In this document: positions 3,566 through 37,222 of the stretch, one piece after another | Layout of the letters: every line of letters starts with the position of its first letter | How positions within the stretch are numbered: position 1 is the stretch's first letter | Source of the DNA: a virus | Taxonomy: Duplodnaviria; Heunggongvirae; Uroviricota; Caudoviricetes | IMG/VR virus record: IMGVR_UViG_2541047852_000009 | Direction: 5' to 3' (one strand) | DNA length: 41,802 nt | The notes under the pieces: model-generated | The model's database searches: none | What the model was told of the DNA's origin: nothing | Seen by the model: the letters and a program-made list of their open reading frames with translations, nothing else | Program-made: the position numbers and the translations under genes

Positions 3566-6500
3566 TCAGCTAATCGTGATGCCTGCAGTGGCTTTCTTCA
3601 TCACAACAACCAGCAAATCGCTGATACTTGCTGTGGGATACCAGCCATTTACCCACCATGCTGATACAGAAAACTCCAGCGTCATGTGGCCGCGACCAGC
3701 AGGCATATCAATAACACCACTGTAAACCAGCGTATTATCCAGCGCGGTACGGTTATAAATTTCAGCACCGTTTTTCCGTACTATCAGGCGGCATGACGAA
3801 TAAATATCGTTATTCTCCCGCTCATGTCTGGCACCGCTGAATGCCACCGCCGGAATAACAATTTGCCGGTCAAACGGCTGATCGTCATAAACCCTGACGG
3901 TAATGGTCCCTGATGGCCACCTCTCCGGTGCACGGGAGTCACGGGGGAAAGCCTTACCCACTGTTTTAACGAGATCGCCTTCAATCTGGTTTGCAGACAG
4001 TTTCCCTCTGATGACACAGTTCTCGTTAATGGTGACATTATTGAGCGTGCCGGTATTCGCCGTGATGGCTCCACTGATATCCGCATTGCGGGCTGTCAGC
4101 CTGCCATCCGGCGTCAGGGAAAACGTAGGAGGATTGCCGGATGACGTGATGCTCACCGCAAACAGTCGCTTCAGGAACACGTCGTTCATGAACAGCTGAT
4201 TCCCCTGCGCCACAAACAGCGGCGTGGTGTTGCCGTTCTCCGGGGTAATCATCGCGATACGGTCCGCCTGCAGCAGAATACTGCTCAGCGTCTGACCATC
4301 AACATCCTCAATCCCCGCGCCAATCCCGGCCACATAGGGAATACCGTTTTTTGTTTTCTGCACCTTCAGCATATACATGGCATTCAGCTCATTGCGCGTG
4401 TCTGACTGAACCCGCTGGATTTGCTGTATGGTCACGGCCTGGTCACCCAGTTTTTTATCCGTGGTCGAGGTAATTTCACTCCCTTTTTTATCCACGTACT
4501 GGCGGACCTGTGCTATCTGTCGGGCATTTTCTGACTGCCCCTGGCTGACAGTCTGTGAGATTTCACTGCTCACCCGGTCCACTTTCTGGCTCACCTGCGC
4601 GATGGCCAGTGTCTGGTCCTCATTCTTTTTCGCAACCAGCTGCGTGAGGCTGTTTTCCGCCTCCCCGATTTTCCGGGTCACTTCTGCGATATCCGTGTCC
4701 ATCCGCTGACGGATGTCTTCTTCCAGTTGCGTGACCTCCGTACGCAGCGCTGAAGCATCAATGCGCTCTTTCAGTGCCTGGCCCAGAAGCGTCTCATCTA
4801 TCAGCCCCCGGAAAATTTCCAGATACCCTTCACCATCATTGCTGGGCTGCCCGCTGGCTTCCACAAAAGCAGATTTTCCCACCAGGTTGACGCTTCGCAC
4901 GTAAAACCAGAAATCCGTCCCCGGCTTAATCCGGCTCCCCTGGACAGTCCACTGACTGCCGGTCCCCAGATAACGGGCAGATTTTTCCACCTGTGCCGTG
5001 TTCGTGATGCGTTTTTCTGAGAACCAGAATTCAAACTGTACCGTCGGGTCATACACCGCAAGACGCGGGACCGCCGTTATCTGAAAATACCCCGGCGTCA
5101 GCTCAATGGTGGCAGGTTTTGCAGGTGCGTTAATCCTGAACGTGGTGGTGGCCGGTTCGCCCTGCTGGCCATAACTGTTAATCGCCCTGACCGTCAGGGT
5201 GTATTCCCCCAGTGGCAGGCCGCTGAAACGGTGCTCCGTGTCTGCGGTGATGGCGGTGGTCACCAGTCTGGCATCCGTTCCCTTACCACTGGTCAGGCGC
5301 AGACTGAAGCGCACGCCCTTCACCACCCGCGGCGTGTCCCATTTAGCCTGCGCCAGATACTGGCCGTCAGCTGCACTCACCTCCACCGTCAGGTGCTGTA
5401 CTGCCGGTGGGATGACGCTGTTCAGGGAACCTGACTGCAGCTCAAAGCGGGCACCGTTATCCACGATGGCTTCTTTTTCCGGTACGTGCTGCACCGCCGT
5501 GATGGCAAAGGTGCCGTCCGTGTTTTCCCGGACGGAGACACAGCGGAACAGGCGACGGCGCAGTGACGGCAGGGAGAGTCCCCACACCCCGTATGTCTCC
5601 ACACCATCAGGCAGGGTACTGACCTGTATCCGGTCCGGCGCGGGGTGTGCGGTGATGTCCACACTCACCGGCTTACCGCTGCCGTTAATCAGGTTCACCG
5701 CCGATGTACCTGTCTCCGGCAGGGTAACCTCACGGTCCAGCGTCAGGGTGCGGGTGGCAGCATCAATGGACAGGACACGTCCGCCGGTCAGGGTCCCGGC
5801 ATAGTCATTATCACAGATTTCAATAATGTCACCGGGTGTGTGCCGCAGCCCCTGAGACCCGAGCGTGAAATCCACCGTCTGCGTTTCCAGCAGTTCGGTC
5901 TTTATCACCCACAGTCCGGCACGGTGGGCCTGACCGCGGCTGGTACAGCCGAACGCGTCCATCTTCAGCAGGTTGCGTCCGTAGCGCAGTATGGCTTCCG
6001 GGTCTTCCACCAGTTCCGTGGAGGTCTGCCAGCCGTTCTGCGGGTCGGTGTAATTCACCTCCACCGCCGTGTGCCGGTCCTTCAGGGCACTGAAGCTGTA
6101 GCGGAATCCCACGCCGTTATCATCCACCACCACATCGCTGTTGGTGTACGGCCACACCACATCCGACGGGCGGTCCTGAACGAACGTCAGCGTCTGACCG
6201 TTCCATACCGGCATACAGCGCATCGCAGAGCAGAAATCACTGAGAACGTCCCACGCCTTACGCTGTTGTGCCAGGTACGCATTAAAGGTCATCCGCGGCT
6301 CGGTCCCCCCGAAACCATCCGGGACCGTCTGGTCGCAGTACTGCCCGATGGCATACAGCGCCCACTTGTCCACATCCGCCGCCCCCAGACGTTTTCCCAT
6401 GCCGTAGCGCGGGTGAGTCAGCATGTCCCACAGGCACCAGGCCGGGTTGTTGCTGTATGCCGGTTTCAGACTGCCGTCCCAGATACCACTGTACGTGCGT

Positions 6501-7258
6501 TTTACCGGGTCATAGTTTGACGGCACCTGGATGATGCGACCGCGGATATGGTAGTTCACCGTCATCTGCTGGCCGCCGAACTGCTCCGCATCCACCTGCA
6601 GCCCCACAATGGCCGTGTTCGGGTAGCACTGTTTCACATCGATGATTTCAGTGTATGACGACCACAGCGTCTTATTCTGCAGCTGGTCCGTGGTGCTGTC
6701 CGCCGTCTCCCTGACCATCCGGATGTTAAAGGGCCGGGGAGGCAGATTATCCAGAATCACCGAGGCCAGGAACTGTGAGGTGGTCTTGCCGTTAATGGTG
6801 ACGTCCTTTTCCGTCACCCAGCGGCCATTACGCTGTAACTGAATCAGAATCCGGACAGAGGAAGGATTACGGTCGCCCTTTGACGTGGTCTGCACCAGTG
6901 ACTGCACTCCGAAGGTAACCCGCAGGAGGTCAATGTTCGCGGACGTAATGGTGCGCGTCACCGGTTTTGCCTTCGTCACTTCCACGCCCAGTCCGGTTTC
7001 AGCTCCGGAGGACTCAAAGCCTTCCGGTGGTGTCTGCTCCTGCTCCCCGGCACGCCAGACCGCGGTCACACCGTGTATCACGGGATTACCGTCCGTGTCC
7101 GTCAGCGGGGTTTTGTTCACCAGGATACTCTGCAGTCCCTTCACCGGGCCTTCTATCGGTCCCTCACCAATCGCATCAATCACACTCATCATCTGCGTGG
7201 ATTTGAGATTATCCTTCGCCTCGCGCGGTGTGTGCGCCTTACCGCCACCTTTACCCAC
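3566..7258 (-). CDS. J: Tail tip / host-specificity protein J
   Basis: Collinear with lambda J over ~1200 aa; likely GTG start at 7258 ([19 protein letters not shown], preceded by GGAGAGGGGGA); the listed ORF extends to an in-frame TTG at 7303. Confidence 0.9.
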
Positions 7259-7370
7259 TCGATCCCCCTCTCCTGTCTGATGTCTGAATCTGTTTATGCC
7301 CAAAAAACAACAGGCACCCCGGAGGATGCCTGTATCATGACTGAATAAAAATTCTGAATATCTTCACATT

Positions 7371-7398
7371 TTCACAAACTGACTGTGGCGCGTATAAT
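7371..7398 (+). promoter_or_regulatory. Sigma70-like promoter (TTCACA - 16 nt - TATAAT) in the I-J intergenic insert
   Basis: -35 at 7371-7376, consensus -10 TATAAT at 7393-7398, 16-nt spacer; opposite in orientation to the flanking tail genes. Confidence 0.45.
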
Positions 7399-7404
7399 TT
7401 CGCT

Positions 7405-7498
7405 GCGTTAGTGTTTTTTGCCCGAGTAACAAAAACAACTCCTTAACTCTAATCTTTGTCTGTCCCCGCAGCTCCGCGATCACTGCGGGATTTTTTTA
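7405..7498 (+). ncRNA. Candidate small RNA (~95 nt) between tail genes I and J
   Basis: Promoter followed ~60 nt later by an intrinsic terminator; contains CA-rich stretch AACAAAAACAAC; no ORF. Confidence 0.4.
7465..7498 (+). terminator. Rho-independent terminator of the candidate sRNA
   Basis: Stem cccgcag/ctgcggg (7465-7471 / 7483-7489) followed by ATTTTTTTATT. Confidence 0.6.
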
Positions 7499-7504
7499 TT
7501 CTTT

Positions 7505-8185
7505 TTACCCCTGCCGCCCGATAACCACGACCTTTCCGCCCCCGCCTTCATCACGGGTGCTGATGTCCTGGGATATACGGCGGGAGCCAACCAGCATTTC
7601 CCCGTAAGGCACCGGCATCGGGTTCCCCTGGGCAATCATGTTATCCAGCGAGGAAAAGTAGGTGTTCTGTTTACCGTTATCCGTGCTTTTGTACTCCGGT
7701 GTTTTTGCCTTCGGGGCCAGCATCTGGGCCACACCGCCCAGTATCATGCTGGCCCCCAGTGAAAACAGCATCGTGGTGGCAGAAAAACCGCCGGCACTCA
7801 GGGCTGTACCCCATAACGCCATCGAGCCTCCGGCCGTGAAGAAAGAGCCCACGATGGCTGCCGCCCCCAGCACAATCTGCAGTCCGCCCTTTCCGGCTCC
7901 GGCCAGTCGCGGCACAATGTGGATGACCGTTCCCTCACCCAGCTGTTCGTGAAGACGGGCGTACACCGCCTCCGGTGCCGTGTCATCACCGGCAATACGT
8001 ATCTGGTACCAGCCTTCGTTCATCTGACGGCGAAAGCCCGGCACCTGTAACGACAGGGCACGGATGGCTTCCGCTGCCGTGTTCACATACAGGCTGAGGC
8101 GGCGGCCAAATCGTTGCAAATCCCCGTGAAGGCAGATGCGTGCCAGTGGCGGTGACGCCAGACAGAATGCGTTCGTCGTTGCCAT
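7505..8185 (-). CDS. I: Tail assembly protein I
   Basis: 226 aa; strong match to lambda I as recalled (ARICL.GDLQRFGRR, GKQNTYFSSLDNM). Confidence 0.85.
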   Translation of the reverse strand: MATTNAFCLASPPLARICLHGDLQRFGRRLSLYVNTAAEAIRALSLQVPGFRRQMNEGWYQIRIAGDDTAPEAVYARLHEQLGEGTVIHIVPRLAGAGKGGLQIVLGAAAIVGSFFTAGGSMALWGTALSAGGFSATTMLFSLGASMILGGVAQMLAPKAKTPEYKSTDNGKQNTYFSSLDNMIAQGNPMPVPYGEMLVGSRRISQDISTRDEGGGGKVVVIGRQG

Positions 8186-27431: not shown

Positions 27432-27922
27432 GAATCCTCCCGGCCGGGATAATATTGTGAGTAAAATAAGGAGCGGGCTGAAGTCCGGAAGTTACAGGAC
27501 AATGGCAGAAGAGAGACGACAGCCCGCAATTCGAAAAAGGCCACGCAGTTGCGCAGCCTTATGAATTCTGGTTAAAATCCATTCGATTATAAAAATGTAT
27601 ATCTCATGCTGTTGCCCGAACCCACTCGGTTTTTTTTTGCCCACAAGAAAGCCCCTCCGGAGAGGGGCTAAAGCCGCGTATCTGTATCATCATGCACATG
27701 GTGCCGGGTGCCTCCCGGTGAGTTCAGTATCAGCACCTGAACCCGCACAGAAAGGATAAGGGTCGGTGACAAAACACCAGTCGCTGATTGCCCCTCCGCA
27801 CAGGGGGATTCACCATGCCAGTTTCTTTTAACAAACTCCCCGCAAAACAGACAACTGTCAACCGTCTGAATTGTGAGACATTTAAAAAAAAGCCCGCAAA
27901 AGCGAGCCGGGAAAAATAAGTC

Positions 27923-27999
27923 TGGCGCGTTGTACTGGATTCGAACCAGTGACCGATTGCTTAGAAGGCAATTGCTCTGTCCGGCTGAGCTAATAACGC
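27923..27999 (-). tRNA. tRNA-Arg (anticodon TCT), phage-encoded
   Basis: Hand-folded cloverleaf, 77 nt: anticodon loop cTTCTAa, T-loop TTCGAAT, 3' CCA encoded; one A-C mismatch in the acceptor stem. Confidence 0.75.
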
Positions 28000-28012
28000 A
28001 GGGTACAGATAA

Positions 28013-28089
28013 TGGACCGCCATCGAGGACTCGAACCCCGCGCAACCAGCTTCGAAGGCTGGCGCTCTATCCTGATGAGCTAATGGCGG
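28013..28089 (-). tRNA. tRNA-Arg-like (anticodon TCG by hand fold)
   Basis: 77 nt: acceptor ccgccat/atggcgg, anticodon stem ccagc/gctgg with loop cTTCGAa, T-loop TTCGAGT, CCA encoded; unusual C1 start. Confidence 0.6.
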
Positions 28090-28096
28090 TATGTGA

Positions 28097-28172
28097 TGGT
28101 GGCCCTTGCTGGATTTGAACCAGCGACCTAGCGATTATGAATCGCTCGCTCTCACCACTGAGCTAAAGGGCC
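28097..28172 (-). tRNA. tRNA-Ile2/Met (anticodon CAT), ileX/ileZ-like
   Basis: 76 nt: acceptor ggccctt/aagggcc, anticodon loop tTCATAa, T-loop TTCAAAT, CCA encoded; closely resembles E. coli tRNA-Ile(LAU). Confidence 0.8.
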
Positions 28173-34765: not shown

Positions 34766-35594
34766 GACGATGCCCTCCGCTGATATTAAGGAGACGGTGA
34801 ATATGAAAATTAGCCTTATCCGCCAGACGAATACGTTCAGCCTGCAAGTTAAGAAGGGTTTCTACCAGAACCTGATGTGCCTGCGGATCCGAAAGAGTTA
34901 CCTTGCGCAGAGCACGTAGTGCAGTTGTTACATAACTGAGTTTATGTAAGTCGTCATCATTCAGACGAGAGAGGGCTGGGACAGTAGCCATGATGGCAGC
35001 CTCCGTATGCAATGGATAACTTCCACCACCGGAAACGCCAATTTCGCTGGTGGTGAACTGAGCAGGGTTGGCGTAACCGGCGCATACGGAAACCGGCGCA
35101 CCTTTCGGTGCCCCCACCCAGCCCACCATAATTTGGGTATAGCTGAGTTGTAGCAACAAAAAAGACGCTAACGCGCCAATTGTCGCCGTATGCAATTCCA
35201 GGACGCCAATCCCGGCACCCGCTTTATAAGGTGCCTGAACAGTGTAACGTCCCGGAATGGCAGAATCAATGTGCTGGTGGTCCTTCACACTCAACAAAAT
35301 CACGCCTGAATTTCCACAAAGGACTAAAGCACTCATGCGGGTAGTCTTTGCGAAGATAGATAACGCGCTGTGTTTCTGGCTCCCAACGAATAACATGGAC
35401 ATAAAGCCCTCTTCCGTCACGAAACCAGCGGTTAAGTTCCTGCACAACTCGCCCCCCACAGTCAGGTAAAGTTCTCTGTGGTTACTTACAGCCAGGTGAT
35501 TTGGTAATCTGCATTCATGCCGTAACAACAGGTGTTCAGCGACACTGACCACCAGCTGTTGCGACAAACGATTATTTGCCGTTAAACTGTTCAT
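34758..35594 (-). CDS. Conserved prophage protein (YdaU-like, tentative)
   Basis: 278-aa ORF directly downstream of the cII/YdaT-like gene, the position YdaU holds in Rac; no recognisable motif. Confidence 0.35.
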   Translation of the reverse strand: MNSLTANNRLSQQLVVSVAEHLLLRHECRLPNHLAVSNHRELYLTVGGELCRNLTAGFVTEEGFMSMLFVGSQKHSALSIFAKTTRMSALVLCGNSGVILLSVKDHQHIDSAIPGRYTVQAPYKAGAGIGVLELHTATIGALASFLLLQLSYTQIMVGWVGAPKGAPVSVCAGYANPAQFTTSEIGVSGGGSYPLHTEAAIMATVPALSRLNDDDLHKLSYVTTALRALRKVTLSDPQAHQVLVETLLNLQAERIRLADKANFHIHRLLNISGGHRHA

Positions 35595-37189: not shown

Positions 37190-37222
37190 TTGACAATGTA
37201 CCCTTGAGATACATAATGTATC
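37190..37222 (+). promoter_or_regulatory. Early-left (pL-analogue) promoter with overlapping operator palindrome
   Basis: Consensus -35 TTGACA (37190-37195), 16-nt spacer, -10 CATAAT (37212-37217); perfect palindrome GATACATAATGTATC (37208-37222) over the -10. Confidence 0.5.

Follow-up and report, generated by a model that had tools for sequence, protein, structure and literature searches.

Introduction

Among described small RNAs (sRNAs), the closest to the one reported here is EcOnc22 of Escherichia coli O157 Sakai. EcOnc22 (Sp15) was crosslinked to Hfq, ran at ~85 nt on a Northern blot and was scored as 'Destabilised' in Δhfq, and EcOnc23 (Sp14) and EcOnc24 (Sp11) are identical copies of it (Tree et al. 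2014, Table S2, PMC4104026). The targets of the family were listed as 'unknown' in a 2021 review (PMC7873438). The element described here lies between tail genes I and J in a 41,802-nt stretch of Caudoviricetes DNA (IMG/VR record IMGVR_UViG_2541047852_000009, referred to as the window), and by its sequence it is a new variant of this known, uncharacterised and widespread prophage sRNA family, EcOnc22/23/24. An earlier note, made from the letters of the window alone, had predicted an sRNA unit at this place and was unsure whether the locus corresponded to any named sRNA.

Other prophage sRNAs bear on the comparison. AgvB and AsxR were placed downstream of Q/PR', not between I and J (Tree et al. 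2014, PMC4104026). HnrS, which comprises EcOnc10/11/12, is 66 nt long and has a defined host target, hha (bioRxiv 10.1101/2025.11.27.690950, PLoS Pathog 2026). The concept of the moron, a piece of added phage DNA with its own promoter and terminator, comes from Juhala et al. 2000, cited in PMC4104026.

Results

An EcOnc22-family variant in the I-J gap

On RefSeq sequence NC_002695.2, the coordinates of EcOnc22, EcOnc23 and EcOnc24 all fall in the 240-bp I-J gaps of Sp15, Sp14 and Sp11, on the strand opposite to the tail genes. The placement within the gap depends on an offset. In the supplement of an RNase E-CLASH study (CLASH, crosslinking, ligation and sequencing of hybrids; Waters et al., PMC5286369), EcOnc22 at 2902717-2902749 reads GCCTGAAAAATAACTCCATAACGTTAATCTTCA, which gives a difference of +135 to +137 between the paper and NC_002695.2 for each of the three copies, and the AgvB1 and StxS anchors agree. 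Once shifted, the Hfq peak extends from the A-rich run to the terminator loop of the RNA that is predicted from the promoter and terminator. The coordinates as printed in Table S2 refer to an older genome version and would misplace the peak within the gap, so they were not used uncorrected. The same shift applies to the EcOnc coordinates of that table (PMC4104026) over 1.94-2.93 Mb, and unshifted they lead to the wrong features.

The Sakai and window gaps showed 88% aligned identity, and the transcribed part of the window unit was 75% identical to EcOnc22. A covariance model (R1) was built from 11 variants, Sakai-type and others, from which window-type variants were excluded. R1 matched the window once, over the full length of the model (positions 1-95 of 95), at 7405-7498 (+) with 71.9 bits and E 4e-12. 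Because of this match, together with the location and homology of the Sakai copies, the window locus was assigned to the EcOnc22 family, which supplies the name that the earlier note had lacked. The Rfam search that the note had proposed did not supply it: no family matched the gap at gathering thresholds, and the best matches at permissive E-values (14-21 bits) were at chance level. In literature searches, this RNA or site appeared only in Tree et al. 2014, in the supplements of the CLASH follow-up and in one review table. The label 'asxR2' at the EcOnc22 position (PMC5286369, supplementary file 4, Sakai 2902729-2902766) was considered as a link to AsxR and was rejected as what looks like a text-replacement artefact (EcOnc2 to asxR), which could mislead those who mine that file.

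The window variant and EcOnc22/23/24 share the site, the orientation, the promoter block, the A-R-N run (R, purine; N, any base), the UAAUCUU motif, the terminator stem and the U7 tail. They differ in the single-stranded body, which is GCCCGAGUAACAAAAACAACUCCUUAACUCUAAUCUUUGUCUG in the window and GCCUGAAAAAUAACUCCAUAACGUUAAUCUUCAUCGUUCUC in Sakai, in the -35 and -10 elements, which are stronger in the window (11/12), and in host background, which is extraintestinal pathogenic E. coli (ExPEC)/B2 for the window and enterohaemorrhagic E. coli (EHEC) for Sakai. Evidence of Hfq binding in related strains, which the earlier note had proposed as a check, exists for the Sakai homologues: they are transcribed, Hfq binds them, and they lose stability when hfq is missing (Tree et al. 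2014, Table S2).

RNA, terminator and Hfq features

The gap is predicted to hold a self-contained gene for an RNA of ~80-95 nt; the features are listed in Table 1. The intrinsic terminator that the earlier note had placed at 7465-7498, ~65 nt 3' of the promoter, is present, with a 7-bp GC-rich stem, an A and then U7. Hfq proximal-face terminators have at least six Us, and the run of seven is invariant in the variants. A promoter-to-terminator unit for an RNA antisense to the late operon, given as ~95 nt in the note, was likewise found, with 94 nt predicted, and the Sakai homologues of this RNA are transcribed. In the RNAalifold consensus of the variants the terminator was the sole shared structure, and the remainder was open.

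The CA-rich stretch to which the note had drawn attention (AACAAAAACAAC, 7428-7439) is also there, and it lies inside five consecutive A-R-N triplets that are unpaired in the consensus fold. None of 2000 shuffles had a run as good (P<0.0005). All 26 distinct promoter-to-terminator units collected from relatives carried 3-7 consecutive A-R-N triplets at the same position, with shuffle P values from <0.0005 to 0.03; runs in variants other than that of the window read AAG AAU AAU, AAU AAA AAC AAA or AAA AAU AAC. The CA sequence itself differed in other variants (AAAAATAAC, AAGAATAAT, AATAAAAACAAA), and the A-R-N periodicity alone was kept. The Hfq crosslink peak of EcOnc22 begins at the A-R-N run, which is a probable Hfq distal-face site. 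Further downstream, the single-stranded motif UAAUCUU occupies (nearly) invariant alignment columns amid hypervariable sequence and is a candidate for a conserved seed or an Hfq rim contact.

Table 1. Features of the I-J gap and its flanking genes, with positions in the window.
Feature	Position	Strand	Details
Tail tip/host specificity gene J	3566..7258	-	GTG start 7258; Pfam GpJ FNIII-A and Phage-tail_3; gpJ in the annotation of identical genomes
Late-sense terminator-like hairpin ACAGGCAUCCUCCGGGGUGCCUGU	7300..7333	-	stem 7333..7310, then UGUUUUUUGG (also given as TGTTTTTTGG); ~50 nt upstream of J
CRP-like site AATTCTGAATATCTTCACATTT	7350..7371	+	core TCTGA-N6-TCACA 7353-7368, centre 7360.5; upstream edge of the mobile sRNA unit
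Minus-strand open reading frame	7483..7364	-	GTG start, 39 aa; TTG start behind AAGGAG, 22 aa
Promoter P1	7371..7398	+	-35 TTCACA 7371-7376, 16-nt spacer, -10 TATAAT 7393-7398; 11/12 matches
Predicted sRNA, EcOnc22-family variant	7405..7498	+	94 nt from P1 (start 7 nt past -10); ~78-79 nt if start is 7420/7421
Possible second -10 (P2) TAGTGT	7409..7414	+	TANNNT in all variants; RNA would start near G7420
(A-R-N)x5 run AGT AAC AAA AAC AAC	7425..7439	+	contains the CA-rich stretch; unpaired in consensus fold; probable Hfq distal-face site
Single-stranded motif TAATCTT (UAAUCUU)	7450..7456	+	(nearly) invariant columns amid hypervariable sequence; candidate seed or Hfq rim contact
sRNA intrinsic terminator	7465..7497	+	stem CCCGCAG/CTGCGGG 7465-7471/7483-7489, 11-nt loop 7472-7482, A7490, U-run 7491-7497
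Tail assembly gene I	7505..8185	-	Pfam Lambda_tail_I, E 6.9e-16; start 8086 in the annotation of identical genomes

Promoter and CRP-like site

The promoter scan recovered the plus-strand sigma-70 promoter TTCACA-16-TATAAT that the note had reported. Matches of at least 11/12 on both strands of the window numbered 2, against 0.41 expected in shuffles; the other one, TTGACA-16-CATAAT, lies at 37190 on the plus strand. The variants keep the -10 pattern nATnAT and its 24-nt spacing from a CRP-like site that abuts the -35 element. This site has the core TCTGA-ATATCT-TCACA, with 9/10 core positions and the flanks AAT and TTT, and is the sole match to TGTGA-N6-TCACA with at most one mismatch in the window. 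Its half-sites were invariant across 17 diverse variants while the N6 varied (ATATCT, ATTTCT, AACTCT), and nearly all variants had no indels between the site and the -10, though the bases between were scrambled. The promoter is probably controlled by an activator that would bind the invariant TCTGA-N6-TCACA, most simply cAMP-CRP. The earlier note had overlooked both this site (7353-7368) and the terminator-like hairpin in the late sense.

A second -10 (P2) is possible further downstream. In the Sakai homologue, GCCTGAAAAATAAC stood at the 5' boundary of the fragment in 4/4 CLASH reads that contain it, and one CLASH read fuses ...CUGCGGGAUUUUUUU straight to GCCUG. These ends would fit a 75-nt Sakai RNA that starts 6-7 nt past the conserved TANNNT. 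Identical ends could come from trimming by RNase A/T1 where a protein footprint stops, which makes the read ends ambiguous.

Variation and spread

Close relatives of gene I at 80 IMG/VR loci gave 45 distinct gaps in several length classes, and it was from these loci that the 26 distinct units were taken. Segment identities were determined for 28 distinct loci of the 240-bp gap class. The flanking coding sequence showed an identity of 0.92 in I and 0.93 in J, and the late-sense hairpin 0.90. Within the unit, identity was 0.94 in the CRP-like block, 0.64 in the promoter spacer, 0.82 in the -10, 0.83 in the GCGUUA leader, 0.63 in the RNA body, 0.98-0.99 in the terminator stems and 0.54 in the terminator loop. 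The scaffold (CRP-like site, -10, A-R-N run and terminator) is conserved, and the RNA body and terminator loop are hypervariable. This pattern was observed directly, as were the anatomy of the unit and its membership in the family.

The unit (156 bp) was present in 1813 of the 5426 complete E. coli genomes (33%), at 5540 places, with a median of 2 and a maximum of 11 per genome. The genomes that have it include CFT073 and ST131, and the Prokaryotic Genome Annotation Pipeline (PGAP) annotates none of the copies as an RNA gene. The gap was also 83-94% identical in 149 phage records, including phages that convert to Shiga toxins Stx1a, Stx2a and Stx2c. Outside E. coli, one pattern scan of 185,579 species of bacteria and archaea, with one genome for each, located the unit in E. 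albertii; there were only two other matches, on one short contig each. These were exact matches in a 460-bp contig of Parendozoicomonas and a 3.4-kb contig of Streptomyces, and both are probably E. coli contamination.

The gap and its flanking genes

Since the stop codon of I begins at 7505 (7505-7507, minus strand) and the GTG start of J is at 7258, the gap spans 7259-7504, 246 bp of non-coding DNA. The 246-bp insert of the earlier note is thus borne out, and the corresponding gap in lambda is 60 bp. The product of I is annotated as 'tail assembly protein' by PGAP in identical genomes, and the start codon of J is preceded by the Shine-Dalgarno (SD) sequence GGAGAGGGGG (7273..7264). According to the PGAP annotation of identical genomes, the surroundings form a lambda-type tail module on the minus strand, with tape measure, M, L, K, I and J. 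A DNA search found the gap sequence 100% identical in ExPEC/B2 genomes (avian pathogenic E. coli O2:K1, O18 and others), and PGAP shows no feature between I and J in the identical ExPEC genomes.

Other gap classes show that the gap is a cargo site. In the 340-bp class, homology to the window starts only at ATAAAAATTCTGAAT and runs rightwards, which covers the CRP-like site, promoter, RNA and terminator, and the hairpin module on the J side differs from that of the window. In the 848-851-bp class (L003 and five other IMG/VR loci), the gap holds a Cu/Zn superoxide dismutase gene, sodC (Pfam Sod_Cu, E 7e-32), in the same orientation. There sodC replaces the sRNA promoter, and the last ~100 nt of the sRNA are retained behind sodC's own terminator. 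The sRNA unit and sodC share the I-J gap as a cargo site. The unit has the marks of a moron, namely extra DNA between genes that are near-adjacent in lambda, with its own promoter and terminator. It resembles phage morons such as prophage sodC in being inserted DNA of this kind in the same gap and orientation as sodC, and it differs from them in that its cargo is a non-coding RNA and in that it is antisense to the flanking operon. At one locus (L032) the gap is 1599 bp long, with an insertion sequence of ~1.25 kb placed in a gap of the 340-bp class, upstream of the sRNA promoter; the insertion sequence has two overlapping transposase open reading frames in an IS3-family layout.

On the J side of the sRNA, a terminator-like hairpin is read in the late sense (Table 1). 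Variants of this hairpin include a compensatory change from C-G to U-A, and one minor variant points the opposite way. In the window copy, one pair is U.G when read in the late sense and C.A when read on the plus strand (-18.2 vs -12.2 kcal/mol). The 60-bp gap of lambda has a different and unrelated hairpin followed by TTTGTCATTT just before J, which the terminator scan does not flag. Because lambda has a hairpin at the same place, the one at 7333..7310, which lies outside the sRNA, probably belongs to the ancestral I-J junction, not to the insert. It may halt transcripts without antitermination in a lysogen.

Comparison with GcvB mimics and other sRNAs

The earlier note had proposed that the CA-rich stretch acts as a target mimic of GcvB. 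Pairing with GcvB R1 was scored in 16-nt windows with AgvB1 as the positive control, as an unrestricted duplex search returned long floppy duplexes and was uninformative. The CA stretch reached -9.4 kcal/mol, and 61% of shuffles were as good, whereas AgvB1 reached -18.7 with 0/200 shuffles. The RNase E-CLASH hybrids retrieved for EcOnc22-24 had mRNA, antisense RNA and rRNA as partners, and no sRNA. With R1 pairing at chance level, a CA sequence that is not conserved and no sRNA partner in the retrieved hybrids, the proposal was not borne out. In addition, this prophage has its AgvB/AsxR-type gene at another place, about 27575-27640. The CA stretch appears to fit an Hfq distal-face motif better than GcvB mimicry.

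The unit is like AgvB and AsxR in that these are short, Hfq-bound, prophage-borne and antisense to the late operon, with a conserved scaffold and a variable A-R-N region. AgvB and AsxR differ from it in their site downstream of Q/PR', in their length of 51-60 nt and in their unrelated sequence, and their variable region matches the seed of a core sRNA (AgvB: CACAACA). The ~42-nt 3' region shared by AgvB and AsxR was not found in the I-J unit, nor was any similarity to AgvB1. HnrS was rejected as the identity of the window unit, as it corresponds to EcOnc10-12, a different RNA at a different locus. It resembles the EcOnc22 family in being multicopy, Hfq-associated and located inside lambdoid-prophage late genes, and it shows that a defined host target is possible for this class; it is enriched in LEE+ strains (LEE, locus of enterocyte effacement), whereas the EcOnc22 family is common in ExPEC too. 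In the core genome, class II-like Hfq sRNAs such as ChiX and CyaR combine a U-tailed terminator with an A-R-N distal-face motif, and CyaR is under CRP control. The window unit shares the U-tailed terminator, the A-R-N motif and possibly a CRP-type control with them; it has no sequence relation to either, and its use of the two Hfq faces is predicted.

The window also holds other RNA genes of related kinds. At 27575-27640 (+), a gene resembling anti-sRNAs of the AsxR/AgvB family occupies the Q/PR' moron site, convergent with STnc100 (27639-27847, -, Rfam 136.6 bits). Conservation with AsxR and AgvB1 of Sakai covers its promoter block CTGGTTAAAAT and its 3' region, and its 5' variable part GATTATAAAAATGTATATC resembles AsxR and is without the GcvB motif CACAACA. 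The terminator of this gene may be impaired because its stem is shortened (CTCGG-T9 vs CTCGGGC-T6). Close by on the upstream side of STnc100, where the prophage has its late-promoter region, are three tRNA genes (27926-28172, -). Elsewhere, adjoining Rfam matches to C4 antisense RNA (35046-35133, -, 80.7 bits) and isrK (35158-35234, -, 61.2 bits) were found. Such an arrangement is familiar from c4-ant immunity of the P1/P7 type and from the IsrK locus of Gifsy-1.

Discussion

We consider it likely that the unit, ~150 bp at 7350-7498, is a non-coding moron that is expressed in the lysogen as an Hfq-dependent, trans-acting sRNA with a variant-specific seed. It would have been inserted between I and the hairpin of the old I-J junction, to be read against the late operon. 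The RNA would be made from the resident prophage in the lysogen and stabilised by Hfq, with the 3' hairpin and U7 tail on the proximal face and the A-R-N triplets on the distal face. Its variable single-stranded stretch would then base-pair in trans with mRNAs of the host (or of phages), and the variants would therefore differ in their targets. Trans action and variant-specific targeting are what we infer from the two Hfq handles, the open and variable body and the Hfq-dependent stability in Sakai, which together point to a base-pairing sRNA in the lysogen. CLASH hybrids join EcOnc22/23 with the coding region of yjbJ (three reads), and family members are linked by single reads to ECs5349, ECs4701, rRNA and an antisense RNA. 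For the yjbJ fragment, the pairing energy is -22.7 kcal/mol with the Sakai body (0/300 shuffles as good) and -11.1 with the window body (51% of shuffles). Pairing with yjbJ is predicted to be lost in the window variant because its single-stranded body differs, which would make specificity dependent on the variant if the family acts in trans.

Several results weigh against this reading. All of the wet evidence comes from the 75%-identical Sakai copy, not from the window variant or its host. The hybrids are few (1-2 reads each, with listed p values of 0.1-0.37), which makes them leads only and leaves yjbJ short of an established target. Among targets inside the window, the longest complementary run was 11 nt against a shuffle mean of 10.2, and none was above chance. 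The terminator stem never varies, so that its conservation comes without the support of covariation, and the fold of the whole RNA is no better than that of shuffles (z -0.88), which is expected of an open sRNA and is not positive evidence. The size of the Sakai RNA disagrees among its sources, at 91 nt from P1, 75 nt from the CLASH ends and ~85 nt on the Northern blot.

The promoter region adds further points on the same side. The good -35 of the window is not kept in variants (TTCTGT, TTCCGG), and a CRP-like site of this quality is expected 1.5 times by chance in 41.8 kb. CRP activates from class II positions near -41.5 and from class I positions at -61.5 or -71.5 from the start site. The centre of the CRP-like site lies at about -44.5 from the predicted P1 start (7405), which is non-canonical for class II, and at about -60.5/-61.5 from the possible P2 start (7420/21), so that a class I-like position fits only with the weaker P2.

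An RNA that acts in cis is the rival with most in its favour, though we think it unlikely. On this account the RNA, or its transcription, acts on the late operon through RNase III cleavage or transcription collision, and would set the ratio of I to J, silence leaky tail-gene transcription in the lysogen or hinder a superinfecting relative with the same gap. The unit is always convergent with the late operon, at this single site, and it follows from this position that the RNA is a full complement of the late mRNA between I and J (7498..7405). The late-sense hairpin just beyond the sRNA gene would also stop transcripts without antitermination before they reach J. Against these points, the stretch that would be paired stops 147 nt upstream of the start codon of J and leaves the SD sequence free. 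A role in cis alone would need neither the conserved Hfq motifs nor Hfq-dependent stability, and it leaves the hypervariable body unexplained, since any sequence complements its own antisense. Relatives that carry sodC without the sRNA promoter have kept I and J, the unit is missing from lambda, and partners in trans occur in the CLASH data. An anti-sRNA (sponge), in which GcvB would be titrated by the target-like CA-rich stretch, or some other core sRNA by a target mimic elsewhere in the RNA, is quite improbable. Such sponges do exist in O157 prophages, AgvB for GcvB and AsxR for FnrS (PMC4104026), and their 5' variable regions likewise carry A-R-N motifs in a similar design of scaffold plus variable part. 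GcvB was the core sRNA tested, and the results given above, namely R1 pairing no better than in shuffles, a CA sequence not conserved among variants and retrieved hybrids without any sRNA partner, all argue against a sponge, as does the fact that the sequence is unrelated to that of AgvB (52% when a global alignment is forced).

The remaining rivals treat the unit as something other than an sRNA gene. A small late-sense protein or a type I toxin-antitoxin pair, with the peptide encoded at 7483..7364 and the plus-strand RNA as its antisense regulator, is very improbable. The reading frame has the strong SD-like AAGGAG, and two phage records annotate a 'hypothetical protein' in the gap. It is, however, absent in 8/26 variants, and elsewhere its frame, start and length differ, with T-run indels that shift the frame; the window peptide is not hydrophobic, and AAGGAG is nothing more than the opposite strand of CUCC, which is conserved in the sRNA. 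For want of conservation across the 26 variants, the frame was rejected as a gene or type I toxin. An inert recombination scar or repeat, with promoter-like and terminator-like strings that arose by chance, is hardly credible, even though the I-J gap is a recombinogenic mosaic that comes in several length classes, once with an insertion sequence, and has neither a PGAP annotation nor an Rfam family. The earlier note had named an inert insertion-scar repeat as one finding that would overturn its proposal, and the published Northern blot and CRAC (crosslinking and analysis of cDNA) data for the transcribed, Hfq-bound Sakai homologue contradict it. The functional blocks moreover show 0.94-0.99 identity against 0.54-0.64 for neighbouring bases, their spacing is conserved, and a third of E. 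coli genomes have kept the unit.

Beyond the trans-acting sRNA that we favour, the family could be a 'cassette' sRNA, a bolder idea that we hold to be somewhat unlikely. Here a fixed scaffold of CRP-like site, promoter spacing, A-R-N run, UAAUCUU and U-tailed terminator would have its seed swapped by recombination among lambdoid prophages, and each variant would rewire different mRNAs of the host or of rival phages under the control of carbon limitation. If this is true, phages diversify a regulatory RNA as they do their tail fibres.

What is new here is the link of the family to the moron slot between I and J, the pattern of a scaffold with a variable seed, the conserved CRP-like site and the figures for prevalence. 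The invariant CRP-like site is a concrete and testable regulatory input. The EcOnc22 family, which is invisible to PGAP and Rfam annotation, is not a curiosity of EHEC; it is among the commonest prophage sRNA units of E. coli and is present in ExPEC lineages. If the variants truly differ in their targets, the prophage content of a strain would alter the post-transcriptional wiring of its host strain by strain.

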